Below, piece after piece: positions 1-23,873 of a stretch of DNA of 39,257 nt. Numbering within the stretch: position 1 is the stretch's first letter; each line of letters starts with the position of its first letter. The position numbers and the translations under genes were made by a program. The DNA is taken from assembly GCA_043803685.1 (NCBI GenBank), contig JAZDJU010000080.1, positions 1-39,257 on the forward strand, read 5' to 3'. This stretch comes from Candidatus Omnitrophota bacterium (GTDB taxonomy: Bacteria; Omnitrophota; Omnitrophia; Omnitrophales; Aquincolibacteriaceae). The notes under the pieces were generated by a model. It had not been told where the DNA came from, did no database searches, and was given only the letters and a program-made list of their open reading frames with translations.

Positions 1-1961
1 GCTTCACCTGTAAGGAGTTGGGGATCTCTGATTACATTTCCCTCTCCGTCGACGCCGAACATTATTTTCTTTCCATCAGGTTGATTCATGTCATAGATCC
101 TGACAAGTGTCATTTCTGTGCCAGCTGGCACTATTTGGTCATAATTGAGAAGCCCGAGATCCTCAGGAAGCAAATCGAACGCCTTCGTTACCACGCCTCC
201 GGGATTTTTGGATAGAGCCTCAAAAGCTTTGGCGACCCGCTCCTGAGCTTCAATCTGTTCGGGAGATTCATTCCCTAAAGCTTTCATAACCTCAAGAGTC
301 ACTCTATAAGTAATGGCTTCCTGGATCAGGACCGGCACATTTTCCCCCAAGAGGATATGCATGATCTCATGCGCAATCTTGATCGCGAGCCACTTAGCCC
401 TCTCGCCCGACGGGATCTCCTGGTAGGCACCTTGATCGACGATCACCGTGTTCAGTCCGATAAACGCCATCGCAAAAGATTTTGGCCCGGATCTCATAGC
501 TTTGTACTTTTCAGGATCAATCCCGGAAAGGAAAACAACCTTCACCCGATACGCTTCTTCGGGAAGGATCTGCTTTTCCACAAGGAGATCGATCGCGCCC
601 TTCACCACCGCCGTCTCTTTTTCAGAGAAGCTGATGGAATCCCTGAGATCTTTTTCAGTCACTCCTTTGAGTAGCCCCTGACTTTGCACGGCCTCCCACA
701 ATTGAGGAAAGTCGAATTGCACCTGCTGCGAGCGGGCGCTTGAAGAAGCGCTGAAAACTTTCAGAGCCGCATCCTGAAACTTCGCTCGGGGACTCGCGCT
801 CGAACGATCCTTTTTCACCGTATCCGCGATCTTCCGAACCGCATCCTGCATTGCGTTGCGAGCTTCGCTCTCAGAAAGACCGTTCAACGTAGTTTCCATG
901 GCCCTAGCAAGATCCATCGCTCTTGTATCCGCAGGATCTTTGAGCCCAGCCTCATAAAAACCCAACCCAACCAGAAAAAGTTCGGCATACGTTTGCTGTA
1001 GGGACTTTGGCGCCGAGGGATCCATGGATGCGACATAACGTTCCCATAACATTCCCTTGGGCTCATAAATGCCCCGAGGCATTGTCCCGTCAGCGATGAT
1101 TTCCCTGTTTCCAGAATGATCCATTCCTCGCAGGTGAATGACCGGGCGGGACGGATCTTCAGCTGTCAGGCTCCGGATCTGTCCGGCTAGCGCCTCGTCA
1201 CGGATCTTCATCCTCTCATCGCCCCATCGAGTGAACTGCTCGAAGGCACTCATGGCCTTATCAAGACTCCCCTCGCCCAACGCCTCAAAGAACTGTCCGT
1301 AGAAGAGATGGCTGAGCCAGTAGCACAAGGAAGATTCAAAGTCAGGGGCTTCAAATACAACGCCGGGCACATTCGCCGCCGCAAGCGCTTTCAATTCGGC
1401 CCCTCGGAATGTAGCCGCAGGACCGCGCCCCTGGGTTTCGCGAATCAGCTTTTTGGGATCATTAACACCATAGGTCTGAAATCCCTTCCGGGAGGCATAG
1501 AACTTATGCGCCTCTTCGTCGATCCTGGCGCGGATCTCCGGATCCCCTCGATAAAGATCCAGCAACCGGCCCACTCTTGCAAGATCGTCTTTCTCCGGGA
1601 CCTTCCCGGAAAGAAAGGACACCCGACCGCCCTGGAGATCGCCCAAAAGCTTGTTCAGATAATCCGCCCAACCGGTTTCCAGGATGGCCAGGGCATTCGG
1701 CTTGCCGTTCGCTAAACGAGGCGCTTTCATCACGGCCTCGTTGATCAGTGATATCACTTCACGATTCAGGTTTTCAACACCATCGTGCATGACAAATCCC
1801 AGATAGAGAGGTATCGTTCCTGCGCTTGCCGCAACCGGCGCCACAACTGGCGTGGAAACCTGCTGCACCATACCCGCACGCAGATCTCCCGTGAATAGAA
1901 CCGATAACGATAAAAAGAGTGTCAACATCCCAGTCGCAACGATCCGCGAAATAGACATTCC
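1..1961 (-). other. Giant protein module: internal Sec-type signal, TraB/Tiki-like domain, HExxH zincin
   Basis: GMSISRIVATGMLTLFLSLSVLFTGDLRA; VMHD, ILETG, VFEAP, IRDEAL, LRGMDH (about 1090-1810); KIAHEIMH...IQEAIT (HEIMH at 357-371). Confidence 0.6.
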
Positions 1962-4900
1962 CCGCACCTCGGAGCGTTTTTCAGGGACTTCCGATCGAGG
2001 CGCTTGTTCGGATGGGGTTTCAGAGAGTTTATCCTTGAGTTCAGCAACCTTCGCTTTAGCATATTCAACGTACTTATCTAACAAATAATTTGTTTCGGCC
2101 GCCTCTATAAACTTTTCGAACTGGGCGAGAGCCTCCCTGATTTCTCCCGCGGAATTCAAGAGATTACCCAGCCTAAAATAGGGCATAGGGGCCCAGGGCT
2201 TCAATTGACTTGCTTTTTCATAACTCGCCCTGGATTTCGCATAACTCACGTGGGCCGTCGGATAACTCCCCAGGGTTTTGCCATATTTGCCCTTCAATAA
2301 GTAAGCATCACCAAGACCCATATAATCCGTAAAAACGGCAGGTGACATCTCATCCTCGGCATATCCAGGATTCAAACGAATCGCGGCTTCATATAGTTTA
2401 ATGGCATCATCCAAACGAGAGGGGACCGTCATTAACTTATCTCCCAGATTGATGTAAGCATCATGATTCTTGGGATTCAGAGCGATTTGCTGTCTATAGA
2501 GCATTTCCATACGCGCCAAATCTTTGGGAAACACTATCCCCGTGACCACCGCATAATTCCAAAGAAAGAGTTGTATCGCCTCCTGAAACGGTATCACTCT
2601 GATAGCCTTACGAGTGTCCAGCACGACCCCCTCAGGCGGGATCTCACCCCTCTCTAGCTTCGGCCGCCGCTCGTCACTGGAAACAATGCTCGCGTCACGA
2701 TTCTCTGAGGAGGGATCAATCCAACGATATGTTCCGTCTGATAACTCCACCACATTAAAAGCATGTCCTATAAACAACCTATCGCCGGGATAACTCGCGA
2801 CCCAATTTTGAATTCCAAGGTCTTCGAGGTACTTCCCGGCAAAAATGCTTCGGAATACGCAACTCATTTCGCCGCCAGAACGCCAGACCGGCCCAGGAGC
2901 AGCTTCCAAAGCGCCTCTCTCCGGCTTACTCGTATCCACCCACCCGGGAAGCGCTAGAATGGGATCCAGAATTTTCCTGATCGCATCAAGCTCCGCCTGC
3001 ACAACTTGGGGTGAATCGTCACCGTACTTCTGCTTGGCTTCAGCGATCGATTTTTTCAAGCCCGGCACGTTGATCTTCCATCCAAGATAATCTGCAAGGA
3101 GCTTCTGAGTGTCCTTCACGCCTTTAAAATAGGTCGCATACTCAAGCTCGACGAGAATCGTCTGGATCACCAGATCGGTCAGCTTACGCGGGAGATCCAG
3201 CGCCCTGATACTTTTTTCGGCATCCCCTTTCCGGCCAAAGATCTCTTCGAACAATTGGCGTTCCTCTCCACTCAGTCCAAGACGGCTGTAGAACTCCTCG
3301 TTCATTCCCTGCCGCAACGTTTGCTCCACTCCGTTCCCTAACGCGTCGACCGCAGATCCCGCGAGCATGGCCCCCACCCCGGAAAAGGCACTGATCAGGG
3401 ATTGCTGTTCGGGACTGATCTCTCCTCCCCGAGACTTCGCCAGTTGAGTCATGTGATCCGCCATCCCAATGAGCTGCTTCGCTACCTTGGGGAGAAGCAC
3501 ACCCTCACGAACACCGTTGGGAAGCCCTTGAATGACTTTAAGAAGATTGAGAGCCTCTTGGAGCGATAAATTTTCGGGAAGCTGGAAATGATAAACAGCA
3601 CCCTCGCCTTTGCCGGTCACGCTCGGTTTCAAATAGTTTTGGGGCGGGTTCTTCACAAATTTCAGCTCAACACCCCCGGTAAGATTAAACCACGACAAAA
3701 TATCCTTCGTATCGCTATCGAAGCTGATCCCAAACCGGGACAGCACATCTTTCAACGGTAATGTCATCACATCCTGGACAATGGCGTTCTCCAACACGCC
3801 TCCTTGCTGAACCAGCGTCGTTGCAAAACGCGTTGGAACTTCCAGCGTCGCTGCCCACGAAGCCGGCCCATCCAACACCGCAACCCCCGCAGCAGCACCT
3901 AACAATTTCAGAAATGACCTGCGAGACAAGACTGGATTTGTTTTAGCCACATCCGCCGCAGCTGAAATCACCCCATCTCCCCGCATCTCGGAGCGATTTT
4001 GCGATTCACCTTGAGTCGTTTCGATTGAGCTCTCGGGTTTCTGAAGATTGGGCCATAAACTAGGATCTTCAGCGATTTTCAATTCCTCTTGAATCTCTTT
4101 GATGGAGATCCAGGCCGCCCGAACTTCACCCGACAATCCAGGATAATCATGGGCGAGTGACAAAACCTTTTGAAACTGTGCGAGCGCACCTTCAAGATTC
4201 CCGCTATTTTTTAAAATGCCTCCAAGCACTCGAAATTGTCGCAAGCCACCAGGATCCAAGGCGATCAACTTATCAATTTCCGGGATTGCGTCCTCATACT
4301 TTTCAGTTGCAATTAAAGCATCCACAAGGCGAGACCGTGCAATTAAAAGTTTTGGATCCAATGCGATCGCTTGTCTATACGCATCAATAGCCTCTCCAAA
4401 CTTATCCACCCTAGCATATCGTCCACCCTGATCGAAATAGAACTTCGCAGATACAGGATCAGGAGGTTTCTCGCTTCGCATCTCTTCGATGATTTTTGTC
4501 CCCTTAAGAACCGCATCAAAATTGTGACGAAAACTCTCCTTGATCGTGGGCTTAAAAGGAAGAATCCGAGCCGAATCCACGCCAGAGGAATCTCTGAGAT
4601 TTATCAAACGGATCCCAATTTCCGGGATTTCTTTAATACCTAAGTGAGCGTTGAGAATGCTGTAAGCTTTAGGACGCGATGGCTCCACCCATATAAACCT
4701 TCCGTCTGACAATTGGACTAAAAGCAGTATGTGGTTTGCCTTTTCGATAGAACCCGCATAAAACTCGGGTAAGACGCTCCACAGTTTGATCCCAATTTGT
4801 TCCATCTCCTCCCCGCCAATAGCAACTCGCCCTAAACAATTCAGTCTATTGGTAAGTGCCATCCAAGAGGGAGAGGCTTCCACAACTATCGTGGCTTCTT

Positions 4901-7900
4901 CCGTATCCTTGTAGACCCAACCGGGAAGCTTAACGAGCACCTCCACAATTTTTTTGATCGCGTTAAGTTCTACTTCTGACGCCTTTTCTGCTCCCTTCTT
5001 TCTGGCATCCTCGATCGCTTTTTTCAAGGCAGGAATATCGACACCCTTCAAATGTTCTCCGTCGAAATATTCTTTATAGCGCATCAGACCCTGAAAATAC
5101 GCCACCGCTTCAAACTCACTCCGGACTTGATTCACAGCTAGGCGAAGGGCCCTATCCCAAAGCCCGAGCTCGGATATTGCCACGCTCGAAGCACTTTCAC
5201 CAAAATACTGCTTGAATTTGTACCGCTCTTGATTGTAAAGGCCCAAGGCCTTGAATACTTGTCTATCCATCTCCTCCTGCAAGGGCATGGCCCGGATCTC
5301 TTCCAGCGTTGGAAGCACATCTGTCTGGACCGTGGTCAGTAAACTTGTCCCGATCCCGTAAAATCCGTTGATCATCGCAGCTTGTTCAGCCGTAAGTGCC
5401 TGTGTCATCGCCAACTGAGCCATCAGGACCGCCGTAGATTTGAACGTCTCAGCAACCTGCGAAAGGAACACATTGGGGTTGCTACTATGAGGCAGCTTTT
5501 GCAACACCCCAATGAGTTTCAAAGCTTCGCTGACCGTTAAGTCTTCCGGCAACGCGTAATGGTAAACAGCATCACGGCCTTCTCCCTCCATGCTCGCCGG
5601 CTTGTAAAAATCTTTCGCCGGTTCGAGTTTCTCGCGTGGAACGAACTCCACCGTAAAATCCCCACCCGCTAACTTGAGCCACGCCAGATCCACCGGTTCG
5701 CCCAACTTGACGGCCTTACCATCGCCTGCGAAACTTTGCCGCTCCGCTGCTGTCCCGAAAAGAGGCGTACTCATGACCTTAGCCGACAGGGAATTCGCCT
5801 GCACTTGCGCTAAACTCTCCGGCGAGAGCGTTGCGAGCGGCTCCGTCGCGTTCACCTGCCCCCCTCCGCCAGACAATGCCAACATAACCGTGATCAACAA
5901 AACCGTTAGAGACTTTTTAAGATCCTTCCATCCCCGCATCTCCGAGCGCTTGGCCGCTTTTGCTTTTTCGGCCGCGGCGACAGTATCTGCCTTGGCAGCT
6001 GCGGCAATATCCTTTTCGTTTCGCGTATTGAGCCCCTCAAAATGATTTCCGAGGTGCGGCATGAGCTCTTCCATTTTCAGGATTGGAAGCTTAAGAATAA
6101 GGGTGTCAAAAGAACTTTCGCCAGAGAACTTCTCTGTGAAAATGCTCAGCGCATTCCAGATTTTAAAAGTAACCGGATCTGTGACAAAGACCGAGTTCCT
6201 TTCTTTGACGACCAAATACGCCACGGAAGGCTTGCCCGATTTCAACGTGGGATCCATCTTTTCCCCTTGCGGAGGGAATGGTTTCCCGGAAGCAAGCACC
6301 GTCAATTGAAACAATTCTGTCAGACCCGCATCTTCAAGTTCTCGAAATTCCTTTTCGGAGCGTAAGGATAATAACTTTTGATAAACCCTCCGTTGCATAT
6401 GGTCTGAAAAAGCGGCGCTTTTCTCCTTCCCCATCAGACCCGCCATGAGGGCATAGCCTGCACGAACTTTTGTATCACGGAATAACAGCCCGTATTTAGC
6501 AACGCCGGGTTCATTCAAAATAACCTCGCCCTTCTGCCGGTAGATCTCTACCGCAGCCTCGTAATCCCCCCCCGCTGCTTCGACCTCCCTCCGGATATCC
6601 TGAGCGTGTTCCAAAACCTTCCCCATAAAATCAATATCCTCAGGGCTCAGATCCCGCTCCTGCTCCACCAATGCAAGAGGATCGAGACCGTGAGAAGCCA
6701 ACACGGTGATCACCCCCTCAATATCAATGGGCCCGGGCGTCGAAACGGGTGAATGCAAGTCCGCGCTAAATCCCACATAATCCTCTATGGGACCAAGGTT
6801 TTCATTGAGATGGAGTTCCCGTAGATACCCGATCACCGTCTCTCGATGCTCTGGATATTTCCGAGCGAGAGCTTTCACCCTTTGAGCGATCGTGTCCGCC
6901 GAGACCACGGGATCTTCCCCGCTCAGGTTGTAGTGCGCCACATCCAGCACGATCCCGAGATTTTTGAGCGCTCCCGGATCCTGCTCCTTCACGAGCTCGA
7001 AAATATCTTCGAACGCATCCATGAACCCAGCCGATTTCGTGTAATTCTTCTTCCCCGGCGTCTTGTCATGGTAATTTTCAAGATTGATCTTGAGGTCCGG
7101 AGCTGCCTGGCTGGCGTAGAGCACCAACTCGGCATAAGCCTTTTTCGCCTCCGGGCTGAGCGTCATCAAATGAACAACGATGCCGGCCGCTCCGATCTCC
7201 CCCGCGAACCGGATCTGTTCTTTCATGAACTCCGGATTATCCGCCGCGTCCTCAAATAAAAACTGCGCGCCGACCGCCGGCCCCACAATGGAACTATGAA
7301 CTGTCAATTTGATCCCCGTCTTTTCAAGGAGATCCTTAATAGCGTCTTTATATTCAGGCGAGTATTCGCCTGGAAGTCGCCGGGCACTAACCGAACCAGG
7401 TGCAAACCCAGCAGCATACGGTAAATTGTCGAAGGACACTTCAACGTGGGTCAAGCCGCGGTTGTAAGCCTCACGAATCGCTGAAAGGATGTCTCCCTCG
7501 AGATTAAAAAACGCAGAGGCGCCCGCCTCAATGGTCTTAGTGCCTTCCTTACGATCTAGTCGCTGAGCTCCCGGCACATTTCCTGCAACATATTCTGTAA
7601 CGCGCGATTGGAATTTTCCGGCTAATTCCTCCGGCTTCGACGCGGCCTTTAAAGATTCGTAGGTCGTGGCAAGCTTGAAAAGACAGTACGGTTTCCCAAG
7701 CGTCTCGGCCCCCGCTTCTCCGAGGCGATCAAGCGCCCCAACCACCGCCTTCATGGTCCCCTCTTGCAGCTTGTAGGTTCGTGGAGTCCCGTCAGGGCCC
7801 CTGACCCGCAATCCTGCGATCATCGCCTCCGCATCGCGAACCGCCTGATCCCCCCTCACTTCCGAGCGTTTGGGATCAGCATTGAACTTAGGCTCCGCAG

Positions 7901-10900
7901 TCACTGCGTCGGGCAGGGTCACTAGCAGAATCGCATCCGGGACCTCGTTTACCTCAAAATAGACTTCCGGTCCGTCCTTTCCGGGTCTTGTTTTCTGGAC
8001 GGGAACATAAACGCGGCCTGCTAATTGCGTACGACTCAATGGACTCCATATGACCTCGGGAATCGGACGGCCGAAAGCCTTGGAGGAACTTTCGATCGCG
8101 GCTATGTCCCCTGGATTGATGCCTCCCTCGTCCTCAGGATGAGAATGATAGCTGAAGAGATAATTACCGTAACGAGCGAACACCTTTGGAAGCCGCTGCG
8201 CGAGAACGGCTGACTCCAAAAATTCGCCTTGCTGATTTATCACCAACTGAACATCTTCACGCCTGTTGCGAAGCATGAGGGTTTCACCCGTCTTCCCCAG
8301 CGTCACAGCATGAGAAGATGTTTCCAACGATTCAAGGGCTTCCTCGAACGATCCTCTCAGCCGGACCCCCGTCTTTTCAAGGATCAGCTCTTCAATGTTC
8401 CGCTCAACCGTCCGCCCGCCTTGATCCACAAGCGCCTTGACGGACGAATGGTCTCCATTCCGAAGCACCACGGGAAAGGACTCTTCGCTTTGGCCTTTGA
8501 TCGCAATAACAATATGGGAATGATCAAACAGGATCTCTGCCGTGGCACTCGCCAGGGCCGTTTCACGAGAATCCTCCAACGCAAATTCCATCTGATCGGG
8601 AATAATTGTCAATAGGACGGAAACCCCTTTCGGAAGTGTTCCATTCCGGTGGCGCGTGCCCACATCGATAACCATCGCGTCATAGGCGGCCCGAAGATCT
8701 TTCGCTCCCGGGACCAAAGACTCTAATGTTCTAATATTTTGCTCACTTTTAGGATGAGAAATTCTGTCGTTCGCATCTAAATAATCCAGAGGGTATTTTT
8801 GCGAACGGAAAGCACTCCATAAAAGCCCTGCGAGGCCGCTTATGGCTCCAACGAATAGAGACACACCCCAGAGGACCACATTCTCCCAGTTCGAAAATAG
8901 ATCCGTCCTCGCTAAAAACTCCGCAATTAAAAATGAAGCAACCGCCCCTCCCGAAATGGCGCATGCAGCCACCACTCCCCCCCAATACCGATTGATCCAT
9001 TTCTCAACAGCCTCCTGACGATCAAAAAACTTCCGCGCCGCAGGGGACACCCCTGCTAGCACCGGCAAAGAAATACTCGCATCGACAGGTTCAAATTTCT
9101 CCAGCAACTCCTTATCCCTCACCTCCGAGCGCCCATCCGCCGGCGTCGTGGCGGGGACTGCGCTGGGTTGTGTAGTAACTTCACTTGGCGTGGCAGGTGA
9201 AACCTGAGCGGCGGGTTCTCCCCTCTTTTCGGAGCGGACTTTCTTTTGCACCGGAAAACCCGACTCGTCCACAATCCCCTTCGCTACAGCAAAAGATTCG
9301 GCAAAATCTTCTTCGGGCGCCATTTCTGGCGAGTACCATCCATCCCCGGTCTCTTTCCCTGACGCTATATTCTGGCCGTGGGCGGTCACTCTTTCACGAG
9401 CCGACCATGTTTCTCTTTGTTCTTCCGATAATTTTTTCTGCCACACATGGTGACCCGCTTCGTGCAATACGATATGTTCGAATGCGCCGGGATCAAACGC
9501 AAAATCATCCACGCTTGCCAGAGCCATAGTATCGTTGTCTAAATACGGTCCACCGTCACCCAAACGCATCCCGGATACAAGTCCGGCCGCGCGTTGATCA
9601 CGCACAAACCGAATATCCTTGACTCCGAGGGACCTCAAAACGTTTTTGACGGTTTCCGAAAGACCACGGATCCTCGAATAAGGCATCAACGGATCGACCC
9701 AAAACCCGTCGATCAGTTCGTATCCGGCATTTCGATACGCCTCTGCTCGTTTTGCCCGTTGCCTGTCCGCAGTCAACTCGTGGCTTGCGTTCAACAATTC
9801 CCTAGCCAACTGCTGGTTCCGCGCTGCTTCCGAAGAAACCTTTTGCCCGTTTCGAAACCTTAACGCCTCTTCTTCACTACGAACCCATGTTTTTTTGTCT
9901 TCGGACAGCCGGTACAAATGATCTTCGAATTCGTCCTGAGTTATAATTTTAAAGGCTTCCGCGCGTCCCAAAGAATCTCCGGCCTCGAACCTTCTCCGAA
10001 TGTCAGCCTCCTTTTCACTGGCAATATCCAGTGCGGTCCGCGCCTCCGAGCGCTTGAGCGCCGGCGTTGCGGCGGGGTCCATCCCTGTTCCCGGAGTACT
10101 AGGGACCGACCTTGCCTGTTGGGCCTGACTTATCATCTCGCTCAAAGCTTTCTCGTATAGCACACGGTAAGCAAGAAAGGACATGGCCTGGGCAGCCCCG
10201 AGCCCTATCTCAGGTTTAGCGATGCGCTTTCCCTCGGCCTGGATTTCCTTCAGTTCCTCATCGCTAAGAGTAATTTCACGCTTGGCTTGATCAGGAACCT
10301 TTTGCGGATTCTCGACACCTTCCCAGGGAAAATACGGGTAGCGCCTTACACGTTTTAGGTTGGGATCGACTACGTAGGGATCTAATACATCGAACGTATT
10401 CGTTGATGATTTCTCATTCGTACCGAAAAGTCGAAATCCGTCAGTGTCGGTTAAAAGATGGATGACAGGCTTCACACCTTTCGACAGATCAAAGCTACTG
10501 TAGTTGGATGTAGAAATAACAGTCCCCTGCAACCTCTTAAGAAATTCTTCCACCGGCATTGCCAGATCTGAATCGAGGCCGGAAGCTTTTTTTCCTCGAA
10601 AAACAAAGTAGAAGTAACTTTTGACAGGCCAAGGCGGTTGGCCATGAAAGCCCATCACGGGAAGCTCATTGACTCCGATCCGCCGGACCTCATTTTCAAG
10701 CTCCGCAATGTCGCTCTCCAGCGTCGCCAAACGCGACTCGGATCGCTTACCCACCGTCCTAGCTGGAGTTTCAGTGCTCGGGACGCCAAGCGTTGTGGTA
10801 ATTCGCCCGCCCGCGGACGAATTGGGTGCGGCAGATGTTGGAAGATTATTGGTTTGGGATACTGGGCCTGTGATGGGCGTTTTGGCCGCAAGCTTGTTCA

Positions 10901-13172
10901 TGTCAGCCAGCATCGCCGCAGCAACGGCTGAGGGTTCTTGGCCCAGATTCGTGGCAACTTGATTCACGATCGGAGCGATCTGATCCCTAGCGGCATCAGC
11001 GCCGATAGGTTTTATCTCTCCCTTGTCAGTCTTCTGCTTGATGAGTTCTCCCTGCACAGCCAACCCTTGCGCCAATATGGGACTTACCTGCCCGGCCGGT
11101 GCCGGACTACCCGCCAAGTCTGTTAAAACATCTGTGATCTGATCGGTCGTAGCACCCACTTTCCCAATAGCCTCGAGCGCTTCGGCTTCCTGGAGACGGA
11201 TGACGCGATAAATCTTCCGGCTGTTCTTTTCCCCGATCGGTGTCAGAGCGATCTGGATCCCCGCATTTTTGGCATAATCAGACTGGTTAAAGATCCCGAT
11301 AGCCCCATCCACCGTCCCATAATCACCGGCACGTCCGATCGCCCGCAGGACCGGCATCAGATTTCTAAGAACGTCTTGTCCTCCCAACTGTTCGCCTTGC
11401 GCCCTAAATGATTCGAGACGCGACACGGCTTCCAGGTAAGAAAGCTCGAAGGTGCTAGCTTTGTTCTGGAGCATCACACTACGATAAAGATTCTCGTCGG
11501 ATTTTTCGCTGAGGCGCGGGGTGAGAACACCGTAGCTGATCTCATGTTCCCTGAGAAGCTCCGTAATGCCGTCGGTGTGGAAACCTCCCGTGATCACGAC
11601 CGCTTTACTGAGAGATTCCCGGCGCATGACGGTGTCGATCTTTTCGTAAAAGACGTCCTCTCTTTTCCTCGCCGCTTCGTAGAACCGGTACGCCGCTTCC
11701 TGCACCTCAGTCACGGCCTTCTTGAAATTGGGATTGACCGGCTTTGTCTCGAAATTGGAAAGCGGCAGGTTAAGCTGCTGACTCACTAAGATTCCGATCT
11801 TCTTGAGCTCCCCGACCATGGCCTCCATCGAAAGGACTTCTTCCCGGCCAAGCACCTCCTGCCAATCCTTGCGGGTCAATTCGAGATTCAGAAGCTTTCG
11901 AACCAGCTCTTCGTCCCTGTAGAGCGCGAGAAGAGCTTTCTGCTGCTCTGTCGCGGCCAGTTTGTCGAGGATCCGCGTGAACAGGCTCCGGATCTCCGTA
12001 AAAAGACTCTTCGGATCCAGCTCGCTTTTCAGGATGAGATAGCCCGCATAAAGACTGAAGTGAGGATAATCGGAAAATCGAAATCCCTTCGGCCCCGCCT
12101 CCATAACGAGCTGTTCCATGAGATCTCGCGGCTCGATCGGACCCGCCTGGCCCGCCACACCCGTGCGCATCACGCTCAGCCGCTGATCCTTGAAATTCTC
12201 GATCGCGGTCACGAGCTTCGGGGAAACTTTTTTCTCCTTCAGGAACTTGATCAGGGTATCCCGTTCCGAAAGCCCCTTGGCCGTATCGAGTTCTTTTTCC
12301 ATGGCCTGGAGGACCAAAAGCCTCGTGGTCTGCGGCCATTCGACCTGCGCGAGCAAACTTTCAAGATCGATTCCTAGCACTCGTTTCGCTTCCGCGGTGA
12401 GATTGCGAATATAGGGCATGAACTCCCGGTGACCTTTTTCGAATTTCTTCCATTCCCCGAGTAGTTTGATCAGATCGCCCGGGAACACTTTGGAGGCAAG
12501 ACCGGAGAGCCGCCCTTCGAAACCGTCGAGGTACTTTTTTACCGTTGCCTCCGAACCAAACACTTTCTTGAGCGCTTCGTAGTTCTCGCGATAGAGCTCC
12601 GCGTTCTCGATGCCGTGAGCCCTGACGGCGGAGCCGTCAGACTGAAGACTGGAGACTGGAGACTGGAGACTAAAATCCTTCTTGCTGCTGTCTGTGGTCT
12701 GCGGTCTATAGTCTTTATCTGCTTCTAGAAGATAAAGTTCCGCTCCCGTGAGCTCTCCCTGTTCTGCGAGGAATTGCGCGAGCTTCAGGTTCCGCTCCTT
12801 GTCCGGGAACATCTTGAGATAATCAGGATTGAGGTCCTCAGAAGCGCCTTCCACGAAGAGCGTCTTGATGCCATAGGATTTGTCGAGATACTGCAAAAGC
12901 TGTTTGATCTTCTGCTGAGCTCCGTAGTTGGCGTGCGCGTTCTGGATATGCAGGATGAATTTCGGATCGGCGTGCGGCGGCGCCTCGTATAAGCCATCCA
13001 GCGTCGCCAGTTCGTCGGGGATATCGATCTGGAGAAAACCGGGGGTTTCGCGGACCGCCATCATCGCGATCCCGGCTCCGGGATCCGCGAAGGTGACCTG
13101 GCTGGACAGAAAGCAGGCCAACGTCAAGAGACTCGTCGCGCGAATGAGTTTTTGTTTTACTTTCGAAAACAC
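1..13172 (-). CDS. Giant secreted multidomain protein (>=4390 aa, 3' end outside the window)
   Basis: GTG at 13172 with SD AAAGGGGGA at 13181-13189. N-terminus MFSKVKQKLIRATSLLTLACFLSSQVTFA is a Sec signal. Hand translation found no in-frame stop down to position 1, and the ORF track lists no closed minus ORF in this frame. Catalytic motifs occur throughout. Confidence 0.95.
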   Translation of the reverse strand, partial: MFSKVKQKLIRATSLLTLACFLSSQVTFADPGAGIAMMAVRETPGFLQIDIPDELATLDGLYEAPPHADPKFILHIQNAHANYGAQQKIKQLLQYLDKSYGIKTLFVEGASEDLNPDYLKMFPDKERNLKLAQFLAEQGELTGAELYLLEADKDYRPQTTDSSKKDFSLQSPVSSLQSDGSAVRAHGIENAELYRENYEALKKVFGSEATVKKYLDGFEGRLSGLASKVFPGDLIKLLGEWKKFEKGHREFMPYIRNLTAEAKRVLGIDLESLLAQVEWPQTTRLLVLQAMEKELDTAKGLSERDTLIKFLKEKKVSPKLVTAIENFKDQRLSVMRTGVAGQAGPIEPRDLMEQLVMEAGPKGFRFSDYPHFSLYAGYLILKSELDPKSLFTEIRSLFTRILDKLAATEQQKALLALYRDEELVRKLLNLELTRKDWQEVLGREEVLSMEAMVGELKKIGILVSQQLNLPLSNFETKPVNPNFKKAVTEVQEAAYRFYEAARKREDVFYEKIDTVMRRESLSKAVVITGGFHTDGITELLREHEISYGVLTPRLSEKSDENLYRSVMLQNKASTFELSYLEAVSRLESFRAQGEQLGGQDVLRNLMPVLRAIGRAGDYGTVDGAIGIFNQSDYAKNAGIQIALTPIGEKNSRKIYRVIRLQEAEALEAIGKVGATTDQITDVLTDLAGSPAPAGQVSPILAQGLAVQGELIKQKTDKGEIKPIGADAARDQIAPIVNQVATNLGQEPSAVAAAMLADMNKLAAKTPITGPVSQTNNLPTSAAPNSSAGGRITTTLGVPSTETPARTVGKRSESRLATLESDIAELENEVRRIGVNELPVMGFHGQPPWPVKSYFYFVFRGKKASGLDSDLAMPVEEFLKRLQGTVISTSNYSSFDLSKGVKPVIHLLTDTDGFRLFGTNEKSSTNTFDVLDPYVVDPNLKRVRRYPYFPWEGVENPQKVPDQAKREITLSDEELKEIQAEGKRIAKPEIGLGAAQAMSFLAYRVLYEKALSEMISQAQQARSVPSTPGTGMDPAATPALKRSEARTALDIASEKEADIRRRFEAGDSLGRAEAFKIITQDEFEDHLYRLSEDKKTWVRSEEEALRFRNGQKVSSEAARNQQLARELLNASHELTADRQRAKRAEAYRNAGYELIDGFWVDPLMPYSRIRGLSETVKNVLRSLGVKDIRFVRDQRAAGLVSGMRLGDGGPYLDNDTMALASVDDFAFDPGAFEHIVLHEAGHHVWQKKLSEEQRETWSARERVTAHGQNIASGKETGDGWYSPEMAPEEDFAESFAVAKGIVDESGFPVQKKVRSEKRGEPAAQVSPATPSEVTTQPSAVPATTPADGRSEVRDKELLEKFEPVDASISLPVLAGVSPAARKFFDRQEAVEKWINRYWGGVVAACAISGGAVASFLIAEFLARTDLFSNWENVVLWGVSLFVGAISGLAGLLWSAFRSQKYPLDYLDANDRISHPKSEQNIRTLESLVPGAKDLRAAYDAMVIDVGTRHRNGTLPKGVSVLLTIIPDQMEFALEDSRETALASATAEILFDHSHIVIAIKGQSEESFPVVLRNGDHSSVKALVDQGGRTVERNIEELILEKTGVRLRGSFEEALESLETSSHAVTLGKTGETLMLRNRREDVQLVINQQGEFLESAVLAQRLPKVFARYGNYLFSYHSHPEDEGGINPGDIAAIESSSKAFGRPIPEVIWSPLSRTQLAGRVYVPVQKTRPGKDGPEVYFEVNEVPDAILLVTLPDAVTAEPKFNADPKRSEVRGDQAVRDAEAMIAGLRVRGPDGTPRTYKLQEGTMKAVVGALDRLGEAGAETLGKPYCLFKLATTYESLKAASKPEELAGKFQSRVTEYVAGNVPGAQRLDRKEGTKTIEAGASAFFNLEGDILSAIREAYNRGLTHVEVSFDNLPYAAGFAPGSVSARRLPGEYSPEYKDAIKDLLEKTGIKLTVHSSIVGPAVGAQFLFEDAADNPEFMKEQIRFAGEIGAAGIVVHLMTLSPEAKKAYAELVLYASQAAPDLKINLENYHDKTPGKKNYTKSAGFMDAFEDIFELVKEQDPGALKNLGIVLDVAHYNLSGEDPVVSADTIAQRVKALARKYPEHRETVIGYLRELHLNENLGPIEDYVGFSADLHSPVSTPGPIDIEGVITVLASHGLDPLALVEQERDLSPEDIDFMGKVLEHAQDIRREVEAAGGDYEAAVEIYRQKGEVILNEPGVAKYGLLFRDTKVRAGYALMAGLMGKEKSAAFSDHMQRRVYQKLLSLRSEKEFRELEDAGLTELFQLTVLASGKPFPPQGEKMDPTLKSGKPSVAYLVVKERNSVFVTDPVTFKIWNALSIFTEKFSGESSFDTLILKLPILKMEELMPHLGNHFEGLNTRNEKDIAAAAKADTVAAAEKAKAAKRSEMRGWKDLKKSLTVLLITVMLALSGGGGQVNATEPLATLSPESLAQVQANSLSAKVMSTPLFGTAAERQSFAGDGKAVKLGEPVDLAWLKLAGGDFTVEFVPREKLEPAKDFYKPASMEGEGRDAVYHYALPEDLTVSEALKLIGVLQKLPHSSNPNVFLSQVAETFKSTAVLMAQLAMTQALTAEQAAMINGFYGIGTSLLTTVQTDVLPTLEEIRAMPLQEEMDRQVFKALGLYNQERYKFKQYFGESASSVAISELGLWDRALRLAVNQVRSEFEAVAYFQGLMRYKEYFDGEHLKGVDIPALKKAIEDARKKGAEKASEVELNAIKKIVEVLVKLPGWVYKDTEEATIVVEASPSWMALTNRLNCLGRVAIGGEEMEQIGIKLWSVLPEFYAGSIEKANHILLLVQLSDGRFIWVEPSRPKAYSILNAHLGIKEIPEIGIRLINLRDSSGVDSARILPFKPTIKESFRHNFDAVLKGTKIIEEMRSEKPPDPVSAKFYFDQGGRYARVDKFGEAIDAYRQAIALDPKLLIARSRLVDALIATEKYEDAIPEIDKLIALDPGGLRQFRVLGGILKNSGNLEGALAQFQKVLSLAHDYPGLSGEVRAAWISIKEIQEELKIAEDPSLWPNLQKPESSIETTQGESQNRSEMRGDGVISAAADVAKTNPVLSRRSFLKLLGAAAGVAVLDGPASWAATLEVPTRFATTLVQQGGVLENAIVQDVMTLPLKDVLSRFGISFDSDTKDILSWFNLTGGVELKFVKNPPQNYLKPSVTGKGEGAVYHFQLPENLSLQEALNLLKVIQGLPNGVREGVLLPKVAKQLIGMADHMTQLAKSRGGEISPEQQSLISAFSGVGAMLAGSAVDALGNGVEQTLRQGMNEEFYSRLGLSGEERQLFEEIFGRKGDAEKSIRALDLPRKLTDLVIQTILVELEYATYFKGVKDTQKLLADYLGWKINVPGLKKSIAEAKQKYGDDSPQVVQAELDAIRKILDPILALPGWVDTSKPERGALEAAPGPVWRSGGEMSCVFRSIFAGKYLEDLGIQNWVASYPGDRLFIGHAFNVVELSDGTYRWIDPSSENRDASIVSSDERRPKLERGEIPPEGVVLDTRKAIRVIPFQEAIQLFLWNYAVVTGIVFPKDLARMEMLYRQQIALNPKNHDAYINLGDKLMTVPSRLDDAIKLYEAAIRLNPGYAEDEMSPAVFTDYMGLGDAYLLKGKYGKTLGSYPTAHVSYAKSRASYEKASQLKPWAPMPYFRLGNLLNSAGEIREALAQFEKFIEAAETNYLLDKYVEYAKAKVAELKDKLSETPSEQAPRSEVPEKRSEVRGMSISRIVATGMLTLFLSLSVLFTGDLRAGMVQQVSTPVVAPVAASAGTIPLYLGFVMHDGVENLNREVISLINEAVMKAPRLANGKPNALAILETGWADYLNKLLGDLQGGRVSFLSGKVPEKDDLARVGRLLDLYRGDPEIRARIDEEAHKFYASRKGFQTYGVNDPKKLIRETQGRGPAATFRGAELKALAAANVPGVVFEAPDFESSLCYWLSHLFYGQFFEALGEGSLDKAMSAFEQFTRWGDERMKIRDEALAGQIRSLTAEDPSRPVIHLRGMDHSGNREIIADGTMPRGIYEPKGMLWERYVASMDPSAPKSLQQTYAELFLVGLGFYEAGLKDPADTRAMDLARAMETTLNGLSESEARNAMQDAVRKIADTVKKDRSSASPRAKFQDAALKVFSASSSARSQQVQFDFPQLWEAVQSQGLLKGVTEKDLRDSISFSEKETAVVKGAIDLLVEKQILPEEAYRVKVVFLSGIDPEKYKAMRSGPKSFAMAFIGLNTVIVDQGAYQEIPSGERAKWLAIKIAHEIMHILLGENVPVLIQEAITYRVTLEVMKALGNESPEQIEAQERVAKAFEALSKNPGGVVTKAFDLLPEDLGLLNYDQIVPAGTEMTLVRIYDMNQPDGKKIMFGVDGEGNVIRDPQLLTGE
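1977..3980 (-). other. Giant protein module: internal Tat-type signal, transglutaminase-like Cys-His-Asp domain, TPRs
   Basis: SRRSFLK (3906-3926) followed by LLGAAAGVAVLDGPASWA; MSCVFR (Cys 2859-2861); GHAFNVVELSDGTYRWIDPS (His 2763-2765, Asp 2715-2717); TPRs at about 2100-2500. Confidence 0.8.
3996..5933 (-). other. Giant protein module: internal Sec-type signal, transglutaminase-like Cys-His-Glu domain, TPRs
   Basis: GWKDLKKSLTVLLITVMLALSGGGGQVNA; NCLGR (Cys 4836-4838); NHILLLVQLSDGRFIWVEPS (His 4731-4733, Glu 4683-4685); TPRs such as AIDAYRQAIALDP at about 4150-4440. Confidence 0.75.
6660..7530 (-). other. Giant protein module: AP endonuclease 2 / xylose isomerase-like TIM barrel (endonuclease IV-like)
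   Basis: LTVH, IVVH, INLEN, LDVAH, ELHLNEN, ADLH, GPID and LVE appear in the order of the endonuclease IV metal ligands. Confidence 0.85.
7869..9116 (-). other. Giant protein module: two TM helices plus JAB/MPN domain
   Basis: Hydrophobic hairpin at 8808-8987. FSYHSHPEDEGGINPGD (HSH...D at 8106-8147) is HxHx7(N)x2D, with an upstream candidate Glu in RREDVQLVI. Confidence 0.65.
9237..10037 (-). other. Giant protein module: zincin metallopeptidase
   Basis: IVLHEAGHHVW (HEAGH at 9450-9464) with downstream EDFAESF (9291-9311), the third-ligand pattern of anthrax lethal factor-like zincins. Confidence 0.8.
11460..12960 (-). other. Giant protein: N-terminal TraB/Tiki (EreA/ChaN-like fold) domain
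   Basis: Ordered motifs HIQNAH (12933-12950), LFVEG (VEG at 12846-12854), GIEN (12603-12614), FY..A..RE, and AVVITGGFHTDGITELLREHEISY (GGFH at 11577-11588). This matches the H...E...E...R...GxxH pattern of the TraB/Tiki family; no HMM was run. Confidence 0.55.
12639..12714. repeat. Heptamer tandem/inverted repeat inside the giant CDS
   Basis: Five AGACTGG-like units, a spacer, then four inverted GTCTnnn units; the reading frame is kept. Confidence 0.85.
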
Positions 13173-20782: not shown

Positions 20783-21862
20783 TTAGTCTTTTGTCTTTCC
20801 CACCGTGGGATAAGAACCCAGCACCTTGAGGAACTTGACCTTCTTCTCCATGTCGCCGATCATCTTCCGGACCTTCGGGTCCGCCACATGGCCTTCAAGA
20901 TCGATATAGAAATAATAGTCCCACGCCTTTTTCTTCGACGGGCGCGACTCGATCTTAGTCATGTTCACGCGGTATTTCTTGATCGGCAGAAGCATCTCAT
21001 AAAGAGCGCCTACCTTGTCACGGATCGAAACAAGGATCGACGTCTTATCCTTGCCGGTCCGGCCCGGGATCTGTTTGGCGATCACGAGAAAGCGGGTCAC
21101 GTTATTCGAAAAATCCTGGATCCCTTCCGCGAGAATCGGCAGATTATAGAGCGTTGCCGCGAGCTTGGAGCCGATCGCCGCCGCGCCTTCCTCGTCCCCC
21201 GCGCGCTTCGCCGCCGCCGCCGTGCTCGAAGCTTCCATGAGCTCCGCGTGATGAAGATGCGACTCAAGCCACATCCGGCACTGCCCGAACACCTCCGCCT
21301 TGGAGTACACGCGCTTGATCTGCTTCATGTTCGGAACATTGGACATCAGATTGTGCGCAATCTCAAAATAGATCTCGGAACAGATCTTCAAGTCCGAATC
21401 TATGAACATGTCCAACGTGTGACTCACGGCCCCGTCGATGGAATTCTCGATCGGGATCACGCCGTAATCAGCGCGGCCCTGCTCGACTTCCCGGAAAACC
21501 TCACCGATGCTCGCGCAGGAACGATATTCCACGCTCGAACCGAATTTGGAAAGCGACGCAAGATGCGTGAAGGTCGCCTCAGGCCCTAGGTAAGCGATCG
21601 CAAGCGGCTTTTCCAACGCAAGCGCCGCCGACATGATCTCCCGGTAAATGGATTTCAAGGCGTCCTTCGGCAGAACCCCTTTTCCCGCCAGGGCGTCGAT
21701 CTTCCGGTAGATCTCGCTTTCCCGCTCCGGAGCGTAGATCTCCTTACCGGCTTCGGTCTTTTTTTTGCCGACTTCGCGCGCGAACTCCGTCCGCGCGTTC
21801 AGAAGTCCGATGATCTTGTGATCCAATTCGTCGATCTTCTTGCGTAGATGGCTCAGGTCCAT
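20783..21862 (-). CDS. pheA: Chorismate mutase / prephenate dehydratase
   Basis: LRKKIDELD mutase domain, YLGPEATFT, PIENS, NVTRF, and an ACT domain with IESRP. Start moved to MDLSHLR. Confidence 0.95.
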   Translation of the reverse strand: MDLSHLRKKIDELDHKIIGLLNARTEFAREVGKKKTEAGKEIYAPERESEIYRKIDALAGKGVLPKDALKSIYREIMSAALALEKPLAIAYLGPEATFTHLASLSKFGSSVEYRSCASIGEVFREVEQGRADYGVIPIENSIDGAVSHTLDMFIDSDLKICSEIYFEIAHNLMSNVPNMKQIKRVYSKAEVFGQCRMWLESHLHHAELMEASSTAAAAKRAGDEEGAAAIGSKLAATLYNLPILAEGIQDFSNNVTRFLVIAKQIPGRTGKDKTSILVSIRDKVGALYEMLLPIKKYRVNMTKIESRPSKKKAWDYYFYIDLEGHVADPKVRKMIGDMEKKVKFLKVLGSYPTVGKTKD

Positions 21863-22883: not shown

Positions 22884-23873
22884 CTAATTCTCTTCCCGTT
22901 TTTCAATGACGATCTCGCCAAATTGCTTTTCCTGACGCACCCAAGCGAACCGGGTCCTGACAAGCTCGAGGACCGCGAGGAACGTCGCGATCAGTTCGTT
23001 CCGCGTCCAACGCTCAGAAAAAAGATCGTTAAACGAGAGCTTCTTCTTTTCAACGAGGTAGGACTGGATCTGGATCATCTTCTCCTCGATCGAGACAACC
23101 TCTTCGAAAACCTCGTGCTCGTTCTTGGGCGTCTTTTTGGCGAGCACATTCTGGAACGCGACGATAAGATCGAAAAAATTCGCGCTAAACGTATCAACCC
23201 CTGCGTCCTCGGGGTCCAGGTCTCCCAGATAATAGTCCGTGATCTGGCGCGTGAACATCTTGCCACGCTCAGTCTGAAGAAGTCCGAGCTCCTTCGCCGC
23301 TTCTTTAAATGCCTGATACTCGAGAAGCTTGCGCACGAGCTCCGCGCGCGGGTCCTCGCCTTCGCCTTCCTCCTCATCCTTATCCGTCGGAAGCAGCATC
23401 TTGGACTTAATATAGATGAGCGTCGCGGCCATCACGATAAATTCGCCCGCGACCTCGAGGTCCAGCTGCTTCATTACTTTCAGATAATCCAGATACTGCT
23501 GCGTGATCTCTGCCACCGGGATGTCATAGACGTTCATCTCATTCTTTCGAATGAGATCCAGAAGAAGATCCAGCGGACCGTCATAAGCAGCGATCTTGAC
23601 GTGGAGCGGGTCGTGTTCTTTCACGGCCTCGGCGACAAGCGGAAGTGCGGAGACATCTAAAGAAGCAGGCCCGGCTTCAGGGGCACAGGCGTCACCACTC
23701 TGGCTTTCGCCAGGAAGTGCTGGAGCGTCCGTCCCCGCGTCTTGTTGCGAAGGCGCTACGACGCCAGCCCCATCGCCTGCAGGGTTTCCTTGAGGGTTTG
23801 GCTCGCTACTTCCCGTGCCCTCTTGGCCCCCCGGTCGAGGATCTGCCGTATTTCCGTTTTTTTCATCATCCAT
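22884..23873 (-). CDS. scpA: Segregation and condensation protein A
   Basis: YDGPLDLLLDLI, AGEFIVMAATLIYIKSKMLLP, DPRAELV, FLAVLEL. The start is uncertain: ATG 23873 overlapping trpS, or GTG 23624. Confidence 0.9.
   Translation of the reverse strand: MDDEKNGNTADPRPGGQEGTGSSEPNPQGNPAGDGAGVVAPSQQDAGTDAPALPGESQSGDACAPEAGPASLDVSALPLVAEAVKEHDPLHVKIAAYDGPLDLLLDLIRKNEMNVYDIPVAEITQQYLDYLKVMKQLDLEVAGEFIVMAATLIYIKSKMLLPTDKDEEEGEGEDPRAELVRKLLEYQAFKEAAKELGLLQTERGKMFTRQITDYYLGDLDPEDAGVDTFSANFFDLIVAFQNVLAKKTPKNEHEVFEEVVSIEEKMIQIQSYLVEKKKLSFNDLFSERWTRNELIATFLAVLELVRTRFAWVRQEKQFGEIVIEKREEN

Follow-up and report, generated by a model that had tools for sequence, protein, structure and literature searches.

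In flavivirus polyproteins, the C-prM junction carries a cytosolic NS2B-NS3 site upstream of an internal signal sequence, and a signal peptidase cut follows. Can a giant bacterial protein be read in the same way? We consider this question for an open reading frame (ORF) of a Candidatus Omnitrophota bacterium (assembly GCA_043803685.1; G000 below), in which a leader of the twin-arginine translocation (Tat) type stands thousands of residues behind the start. The ORF lies on contig C80 (JAZDJU010000080.1), whose 39,257 nucleotides are the window analyzed here; the whole assembly comprises 2.89 Mb in 133 contigs. Tat signal peptides carry the consensus S-R-R-x-F-L-K (accessible part of PMC7317946). 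Dual Sec-Tat proteins of the Sco2149 type, handled by both the general secretory (Sec) and the Tat pathway, have a Tat-dependent helix that comes last, is of low hydrophobicity, is followed by positive charges on its C-terminal side, and precedes a cofactor domain (accessible part of PMC5449189). Giant genes of Omnitrophota were described by West-Roberts et al. 2023 (bioRxiv 10.1101/2023.11.21.568195), who, in the accessible part of their text, suspect cleavage, propose C39 or S8 peptidase domains for it, and find cleavage-point information lacking. A 2026 preprint (10.64898/2026.06.07.730766), as far as its accessible text goes, discards internal signal-peptide calls as artefacts, and in Seymour et al. 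2023 there is no mention of Tat or of signal peptides. Our literature search returned nothing relevant on Omnitrophota together with polyprotein or twin-arginine, nor on bacterial polyproteins with internal signal peptides. Whether giant Omnitrophota proteins are single chains or are cut is a question that the junction-defined, testable module starts described here address.

The giant ORF (3..13172, minus strand) opens with GTG and encodes at least 4,390 amino acids (aa; 4,390 codons), its 3' end lying past the contig start. Eight copies of a short peptide, R-S-E-x-R, delimit segments S1-S9 within it, and the Tat-type leader opens S8 (1977..3995, minus), a 673-aa cargo module composed of the leader, a Cys/His/Asp domain, and tetratricopeptide (TPR) repeats. 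We read this leader as a genuine Tat-type signal, by sequence, that heads one cargo module; the module would be freed at its junction, and in this organism the leader would serve Sec export or persist as a relic. Our confidence in this reading is evenly balanced. The chain would be cut at or beside RSEMR while still on the cytoplasmic side, which would leave the S8 leader at an N-terminus, as a signal whose n-region measures ~20 residues; with its leader thus exposed, each module would be sorted independently. In relatives that encode Tat, leaders of this type would probably use the Tat pathway. In G000, the S8 leader would feed its module to Sec, with signal peptidase I (SPase I) cutting at SWA|A, or alternatively would be a relic that has not yet decayed. 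Because the Tat machinery is missing from G000, the leader is less likely to be a working Tat signal than to mark where a separately sorted module begins.

How does this arrangement compare with the described systems? By analogy, the giant ORF would work most like flavivirus-type internal signal sequences. Both have an internal signal with an SPase site and, 8-55 residues before it, a short basic motif that is conserved; in both, a single ORF holds many proteins with differing destinations. Unlike the flavivirus case, the present one belongs to a cellular genome, is known here from sequence alone, has R-S-E-x-R in place of a dibasic motif, and has no paired returning helices. Resemblance to the West-Roberts giant genes extends to an uncultured Omnitrophota host, very long ORFs, many unrelated domains, and membrane segments; set against the accessible part of that account, however, the present proteins are shorter (2-10 thousand aa), share another head, and have an explicit junction motif and export leaders. 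As in dual Sec-Tat proteins, a twin-arginine motif lies within the chain and the earlier parts are Sec-handled, but here the leader of S9 follows that of S8, the C-terminal flank is acidic or neutral, hydropathy is at or above that of Sec leaders, there is no evident cofactor domain, and no Tat system is encoded. Judged by these features, the S8 leader is not of the Sco2149 type. An earlier sequence-only reading of this DNA had held that a Tat motif must be N-terminal and does not fit a chain threaded through Sec; that was too strong, since dual Sec-Tat proteins do carry internal Tat motifs (accessible part of PMC5449189).

Anatomy of the S8 leader

The minus-strand stretch 3852-3995 translates as RSEMRGDGVISAAADVAKTNPVLSRRSFLKLLGAAAGVAVLDGPASWA. 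It begins with the RSEMR junction that opens S8 (aa 3060-3064; 3981..3995) and, after a spacer of exactly 18 residues, reaches SRRSFLK (aa 3083-3089; 3906..3926), a 7/7 match to the Tat consensus. The hydrophobic (h-) region that follows, LLGAAAGVAVL (3873..3905), has four Ala and two Gly among its 11 aa and a mean Kyte-Doolittle hydropathy of 2.38, and the c-region, DGPASWA (3852..3872), ends at the predicted SPase I site SWA|A. Counted from the Met of RSEMR, the leader is thus MRGDGVISAAADVAKTNPVL-SRRSFLK-LLGAAAGVAVL-DGPASWA (3852..3986). Coordinates and sequence agree with the sequence-only reading, which had singled out the exact motif, its 18-residue distance from RSEMR, and the Gly/Ala-rich h-region.

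With Tat signal peptides, the leader shares the exact consensus, an n-region of ~20 residues when counted from the junction, a Gly/Ala-rich, low-Leu h-region, D-G-P helix breakers 16-18 residues after the twin arginines, and an AxA-type site. By rule, the h-region is moderately hydrophobic and Gly/Ala-rich and is joined to such a site, as in a Tat signal. On the excised segment, TIGR01409 (NCBIfam) reached 19.4 bits (cutoff, 16.7); when all six frames of the G000 genome were scanned, it reached 23.3 bits at the S8 leader, its sole match. The leader differs from Tat signal peptides in being internal (3,082 residues precede SRRSFLK in the ORF, so it is not N-terminal, as a Tat signal is), in having a c-region without a basic residue, in falling below the gathering score of PF10518 (Pfam; 19.3 bits vs. 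22.7), and in belonging to a genome without tatA or tatC. All Tat features listed in the accessible part of PMC7317946 are found in it save one, the basic "Sec-avoidance" residue of the c-region. Because that residue is missing and the h-region is as hydrophobic as those of neighboring Sec leaders (2.38 vs. 1.56-2.22 for three Sec-type leaders of the same protein), the leader could be taken by Sec; its flank, DGPASWAATLEV, has zero positive charge.

Both neighbors open with leaders of their own. S7 (aa 2409-3059; 3996..5948, minus) is a paralogue of S8 (33% identity, E 4.9e-44), and directly after its own RSEMR stands a Sec-type leader, RSEMRGWKDLKKSLTVLLITVMLALSGGGGQVNA (5847-5939; MRGWKDLKKSLTVLLITVMLALSGGGGQVNA), which bears out the earlier statement that the paralogous neighbor uses a Sec-type signal. 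S9 (3..1976, minus), the next module, is ended by the contig end and has a Sec-type leader at 1875-1967. The ORF itself, as the sequence-only reading also had it, starts with a Sec signal: its N-terminus, read by eye, is the Sec-type leader VFSKVKQKLIRATSLLTLACFLSSQVTFA of the head (aa 1-29; 13086..13172, minus; ...QVTFA|D).

Could SRRSFLK have arisen by chance? Given the aa composition of the giant ORFs, 0.0018 matches to the strict pattern [ST]RR.F[LI]K are expected in the 162 stretches of 60 aa that follow R-S-E-x-R junctions in G000; two were seen, the S8 site and SRRIFLK on contig C123. A chance origin is rejected on these numbers. For the looser RR.F[LI] within 60 aa behind junctions, three were seen against 0.25 expected. 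Six-frame ORFs of at least 100 aa include a third strict match, in a short ORF that has no h-region.

Junction peptides and module starts

How widespread is the junction peptide, and what does it introduce? G000 holds 162 copies of R-S-E-x-R in 17 ORFs, against 1.6 expected, with 2-25 copies per ORF and ORF lengths of 1,003-10,126 aa. The other seven copies of the window ORF lie at 10731-10745, 10038-10052, 9222-9236, 9117-9131, 7854-7868, 5934-5948, and 1962-1976 (minus). At the 162 junctions, residue x is mostly Val (71) or Met (38), followed by Ala (20), Leu (10), Ile (10), Thr (8), Ser (3), Gly (1), and Lys (1). All six codons occur at the last Arg, near background frequencies, and both Glu codons are used, which shows that selection acts on the junction peptide. 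Another genetic code or a constant codon within the junction is rejected because codons vary at every position of the peptide. We also observed some nucleotide bias: the first Arg is CGY at 137 of the 162 junctions, Ser is TCN at 158, and the x codon ends in G at 104. A DNA pattern for RSE[VM]R matched G000 74 times (a reversed control, once) and was enriched in 18 of 19 congeners. Beyond the genus, it was enriched in four of the family's five other genera and in some further families of the order.

Because the x codon of the S8 junction is ATG, the leader might become N-terminal without proteolysis, through an internal translation start. In keeping with such a start, x is ATG or GTG at 80 of the 162 junctions, GTG makes up 42 of the 71 Val codons at x (36% background), and S7 and S8, read from Met, are textbook pre-proteins. 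At half of the junctions, however, x is not a start codon (GTT, GTC, GCG, ACG, etc.), and the flanking Arg, Ser, Glu, and Arg, for which a start site would have no need, are conserved as amino acids. A core resembling a Shine-Dalgarno (SD) sequence precedes only 5 of 81 junction start codons at positions -16..-5 (6%), whereas the share is 42% among ordinary first ATGs and 14.7% among internal ones; with the core rarer at junctions than at internal ATGs, an SD-led internal start is rejected. We consider internal initiation in general extremely unlikely.

The stretches behind junctions are rich in export leaders. Hydrophobic 15-mers lie 0-20 aa behind junctions 17 times (3.0 expected from 200 random placements) and 0-60 aa behind them 31 times (8.5 expected, likewise from 200 placements). 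A hydrophobic segment lies within 50 aa behind 28 of the 162 junctions, and two of these 28 are lipobox leaders directly behind the junction. In the giant ORFs of G000, G005, and G017, the density of RRxF[LI] within 60 aa of junctions is 7-12 times that elsewhere. The motif recurs just behind junctions in other giant ORFs of G000 and of relatives and is not randomly placed; the sequence-only reading had named its absence or random placement in such proteins as what would refute it. Leaders of three kinds—Sec, lipoprotein, and Tat-type—are found directly behind one conserved junction peptide. It is unusual for a consensus Tat leader to stand thousands of residues from the start of an ORF, and such leaders recur at one defined position in genomes with Tat as well as in genomes without it.

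Does the chain need to be cut at all? If it stayed whole, the S8 leader would be left over from a once-separate gene and would now be an internal signal-anchor, a membrane segment, or an inert linker, with the twin arginines as its positive-inside flank. The accessible text of 10.64898/2026.06.07.730766 treats such proteins as single polytopic chains. Elsewhere, the same cargo domain follows Sec-like, Tat-like, or no segment, and since homologues vary in this way, the leader is dispensable for the domain; the failure to find Tat in G000 also favors an uncut chain. Several observations speak against it. The hydrophobic run of 11-14 residues ends in D-G-P and SWA|A in the manner of a signal peptide, and the 11-aa h-region is too short for a membrane-spanning helix. 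An exact 7/7 consensus would be unexpected in an inert relic. In addition, the leaders of S7, S8, and S9 each have their positive flank on the N-terminal side, with no returning helix in between; with three such N-in leaders, S7 and its paralogue S8 would end up on opposite membrane sides if the chain stayed uncut, and at least one of the three leaders would break the positive-inside rule. The same predicted orientation recurs in 35 of 63 adjacent pairs of hydrophobic segments across the 17 giant ORFs, a figure that is suggestive only, because the crude hydropathy and charge predictor calls some buried helices. We regard an uncut chain as rather unlikely.

Cargo of a cytoplasmic type likewise argues against an uncut chain. 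The ORF of contig C49 (2,472 aa) has a secretory head and then five Response_reg stretches (E 1.5e-83), and in the ORF of contig C57, behind a secretory head, a DnaJ J-domain begins 5 aa after RSEMR. In neither case is a helix predicted between the head and this cargo. The sequence-only reading had called SRRSFLK the strongest single hint of polyprotein processing; stronger hints come from three consecutive N-in leaders and from secretory heads followed by cargo of a cytoplasmic type. Its proposal that the module is freed in the cytoplasm before export stands in part: leaders at junctions, the lipobox leaders, and the mixed cargo suggest that modules are sorted singly and that the chain is probably cut, but the dependence on Tat does not carry over to G000.

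Extending this reading, we suggest, tentatively and with less confidence, that bacteria of this order make true polyproteins from their giant ORFs and that these are cut at R-S-E-x-R, on the cytoplasmic side, with modules sorted to the cytoplasm, to Sec, to the lipoprotein pathway, and, where it is kept, to Tat; polyprotein modules would then be the only recognizable Tat clients in some Tat-encoding relatives (G023 and G027). If this were true, topology predictions that treat the giant ORFs as single polytopic proteins would be wrong, and the perfect SRRxFLK in Tat-less genomes would imply either very recent Tat loss or a Tat-independent reader of the motif.

Tat machinery and Tat-type leaders among relatives

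Is there a Tat system for the S8 leader to use? The sequence-only reading had invoked Tat export and proposed a search of the genome for tatABC. Neither PF00902 (TatC) nor PF02416 (TatA/B/E) had a match in the 91%-complete G000 assembly, tblastn with the TatC of four relatives found nothing there, and neither tatC nor tatA was found in 16 of 19 congeners; the remaining three (G005, G015, and G017) have both. Among 40 relatives, TatC was found in 18 and TatA in 22; outside the genus, the numbers are 15 and 19 of 21. G000 does encode SecY, SPase I, and LspA. Tat is probably ancestral in the order and was probably lost in most of the genus, including G000, as judged from this distribution. In G005 (locus L010, G005:C44:92000-106500), tatA-tatC adjoins genes for cytochrome b, multihaem cytochromes, and a Rieske protein whose leader carries SRRDFI, a cluster without counterpart in G000; only one ORF of the tatC neighborhood has a match there. 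Because these respiratory genes are unmatched in G000 as well, Tat loss may accompany loss of the respiratory cluster. Their joint absence fits loss, or else a single unassembled region.

On the latter possibility, tatAC would belong to the 9% of the genome that is missing from the assembly, and the S8 leader would be a working Tat signal. The perfect consensus, the TIGR01409 score above threshold, basic residues of the Sec-avoidance type in two Tat-like leaders on contig C123, an ancestral Tat kept by 3 of 19 congeners, and an assembly in 133 contigs that is 91% complete are all in its favor. Yet tatC and tatA are missing from 16 of the 19 congeners as well as from G000, and eight of these 16 congeners are 93-97% complete; the Rieske, cytochrome b, and multihaem genes that adjoin tat in G005 are also unmatched; no ordinary G000 gene carries a TIGR01409-grade signal; and G011, Tat-less at 96% completeness, also keeps SRRNFLK in a giant ORF. 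We therefore consider a working Tat signal very unlikely, and the chance that the source organism has Tat very small.

Where do Tat-type leaders occur in relatives? Six-frame scans of 15 genomes with TIGR01409 gave 10 matches: seven in frames of at least 3,201 aa (one in G000, one in G011, three in G023, and two in G027) and three in ordinary frames of 177-405 aa, all in G017. In the Tat-encoding G023 and G027, all five matches lie inside frames of 3,201-9,042 aa (loci L067, L068, L070, and L071), and no ordinary gene of either genome, or of G000, reached the threshold in these genome-wide scans. Four of the five follow RSE[VA]R by 15-55 aa; the fifth lies ~150 aa behind it, beside masked bases. 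The two leaders of G027 have basic c-regions. In G011, SRRNFLK stands 8 aa behind a variant junction, RAETR. Tat-type leaders in Tat-less genomes provide a natural experiment on the decay or reuse of a signal after Tat loss.

Several findings weigh against reading the S8 leader as the freed head of a module that uses Sec or is decaying. Exact SRRxFLK is kept in two Tat-less genomes (twice in G000 and once in G011), which is odd for relics. The two Tat-like leaders of C123 have basic residues after the h-region, which argues against Sec use of those leaders. Two tests of a link between such leaders and TatC disagree, and both samples are small: TIGR01409 matched giant frames five times in seven TatC-encoding genomes vs. 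twice in eight genomes without TatC, whereas RRxF[LI] followed junctions in 3 of 244 stretches from the former and 4 of 312 from the latter (stretches sampled around pattern matches). The closest S8 relative is 30% identical, among the matches listed, and a homologue is present in just 2 of 40 related genomes. The assembly is 91.3% complete and 6.6% contaminated. Leaders and SPase I sites were judged by eye throughout, from hydropathy, charge, and the -3/-1 rule that is used for reading signal peptidase cleavage sites. Finally, the conserved head that follows the N-terminal leader (see below) may be a candidate hydrolase or protease, perhaps Tiki-like; because it has a secretory leader, cutting could occur outside the cytoplasm.

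Cargo, head, and tail of the family

What does the S8 leader introduce? In alignment A1 of the S8-type domain, Cys379 and His411 are invariant and Asp420 is near-invariant; together they form a candidate catalytic core (2736..2861, minus; C at 2859-2861, H at 2763-2765, and D at 2736-2738), and these residues are presumably catalytic. The TPR repeats of S8 were matched by Pfam. Matches of S8 in the Atlas to transglutaminase-like proteins had low scores (0.76-0.80), no member of A1 matched a transglutaminase family among the 25 Pfam families listed, and sequence and profile searches of the PDB with S8 and with the head returned TPR proteins alone or no significant relative. We treat a transglutaminase-like identity of S8, as well as a Tiki-like identity of the head, as leads only.

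Among the matches listed (150 of 6,106), ~10 are true homologues of the S8 domain, the remainder being TPR noise, and among the same matches we found no free-standing homologue with an N-terminal Tat leader: the domain is always internal. Of the two relatives with an S8 match, one has a homologue ended by a contig end and the other a homologue without a leader. The twin-arginine segment of P0028, which stands before the same domain, scored under the TIGR01409 threshold, and the two Tat-like modules of C123 had matches in none of the 40 relatives. A recent foreign origin of S8 is not supported, with a GC content of 0.512 vs. 0.521 for the genome and the nearest homologue at 30% identity. In another family of the order, an S7/S8-domain homologue lies in a 3,467-aa ORF (locus L008, G025:C13:38500-58000). 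That ORF has no RSExR, 10 copies of GFGA, and no leader before the homologous module, as if the junction peptide varied between lineages.

In all 12 N-complete giant ORFs of G000, a secretory leader comes first, together with a conserved head of ~600 aa. Alignment A2 of 12 heads (loci L054-L064 plus the window) gives IQxAH, EG, GGFH, R, and Y as invariant, and S1 of the window ORF (aa 1-809; 10746..13172, minus), which aligns with the 11 other heads, matches the head profile at E 4e-231. The profile has matches in 41 of 41 related genomes, with 6-40 copies in each and frame lengths of 455-23,964 aa, and it also matches in genomes without the RSE[VM]R pattern. The nearest Atlas clusters of the head, like the source name of homologue P0002, point to Omnitrophota. 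Only one of the 12 heads matched PF04187 (Tiki/ChaN), weakly (E 0.007). At the other end, all 14 C-complete giant ORFs of G000 (contigs C10, C12, C34, C47, C49, C59, C67, C84, C98, C101, C114, and C123) finish in [S/A]-Ala, a C-terminus that we take to resemble tags recognized by tail-specific proteases or by those of the ClpX type. The layout of this large Omnitrophota family is a secretory leader with a conserved head, cargo modules each introduced by R-S-E-x-R, and a conserved tail; the window ORF has both the secretory leader with head and the repeated junction (eight copies).

Peptidase-like motifs are abundant in the giant protein: HEAGHH in S3 (9447-9464, minus), a JAMM-like HSHPxxxxxxxNxxD in S5 (8091-8150, minus), a zincin-like HEIMH in S9 (357-371, minus), and the Cys-His-Asp cores of S7 and S8. 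None of these motifs reached a Pfam or NCBIfam family. Four more RSExR strings occur in frame 1 of the plus strand (~10564-10578, 21796-21810, 23011-23025, and 38341-38355), where they are antisense either to the giant ORF or to genes of the minus strand, with none in the other four noncoding frames; these antisense strings are possibly due to chance. Five distant homologues (P0010, P0035, P0057, P0059, and P0029) have another head (...LIKYFLASLTIPEKDLWVNLSPYEK...) and a GGIDLT... tail, and by eye, D-x-A-M stands at their module boundaries.

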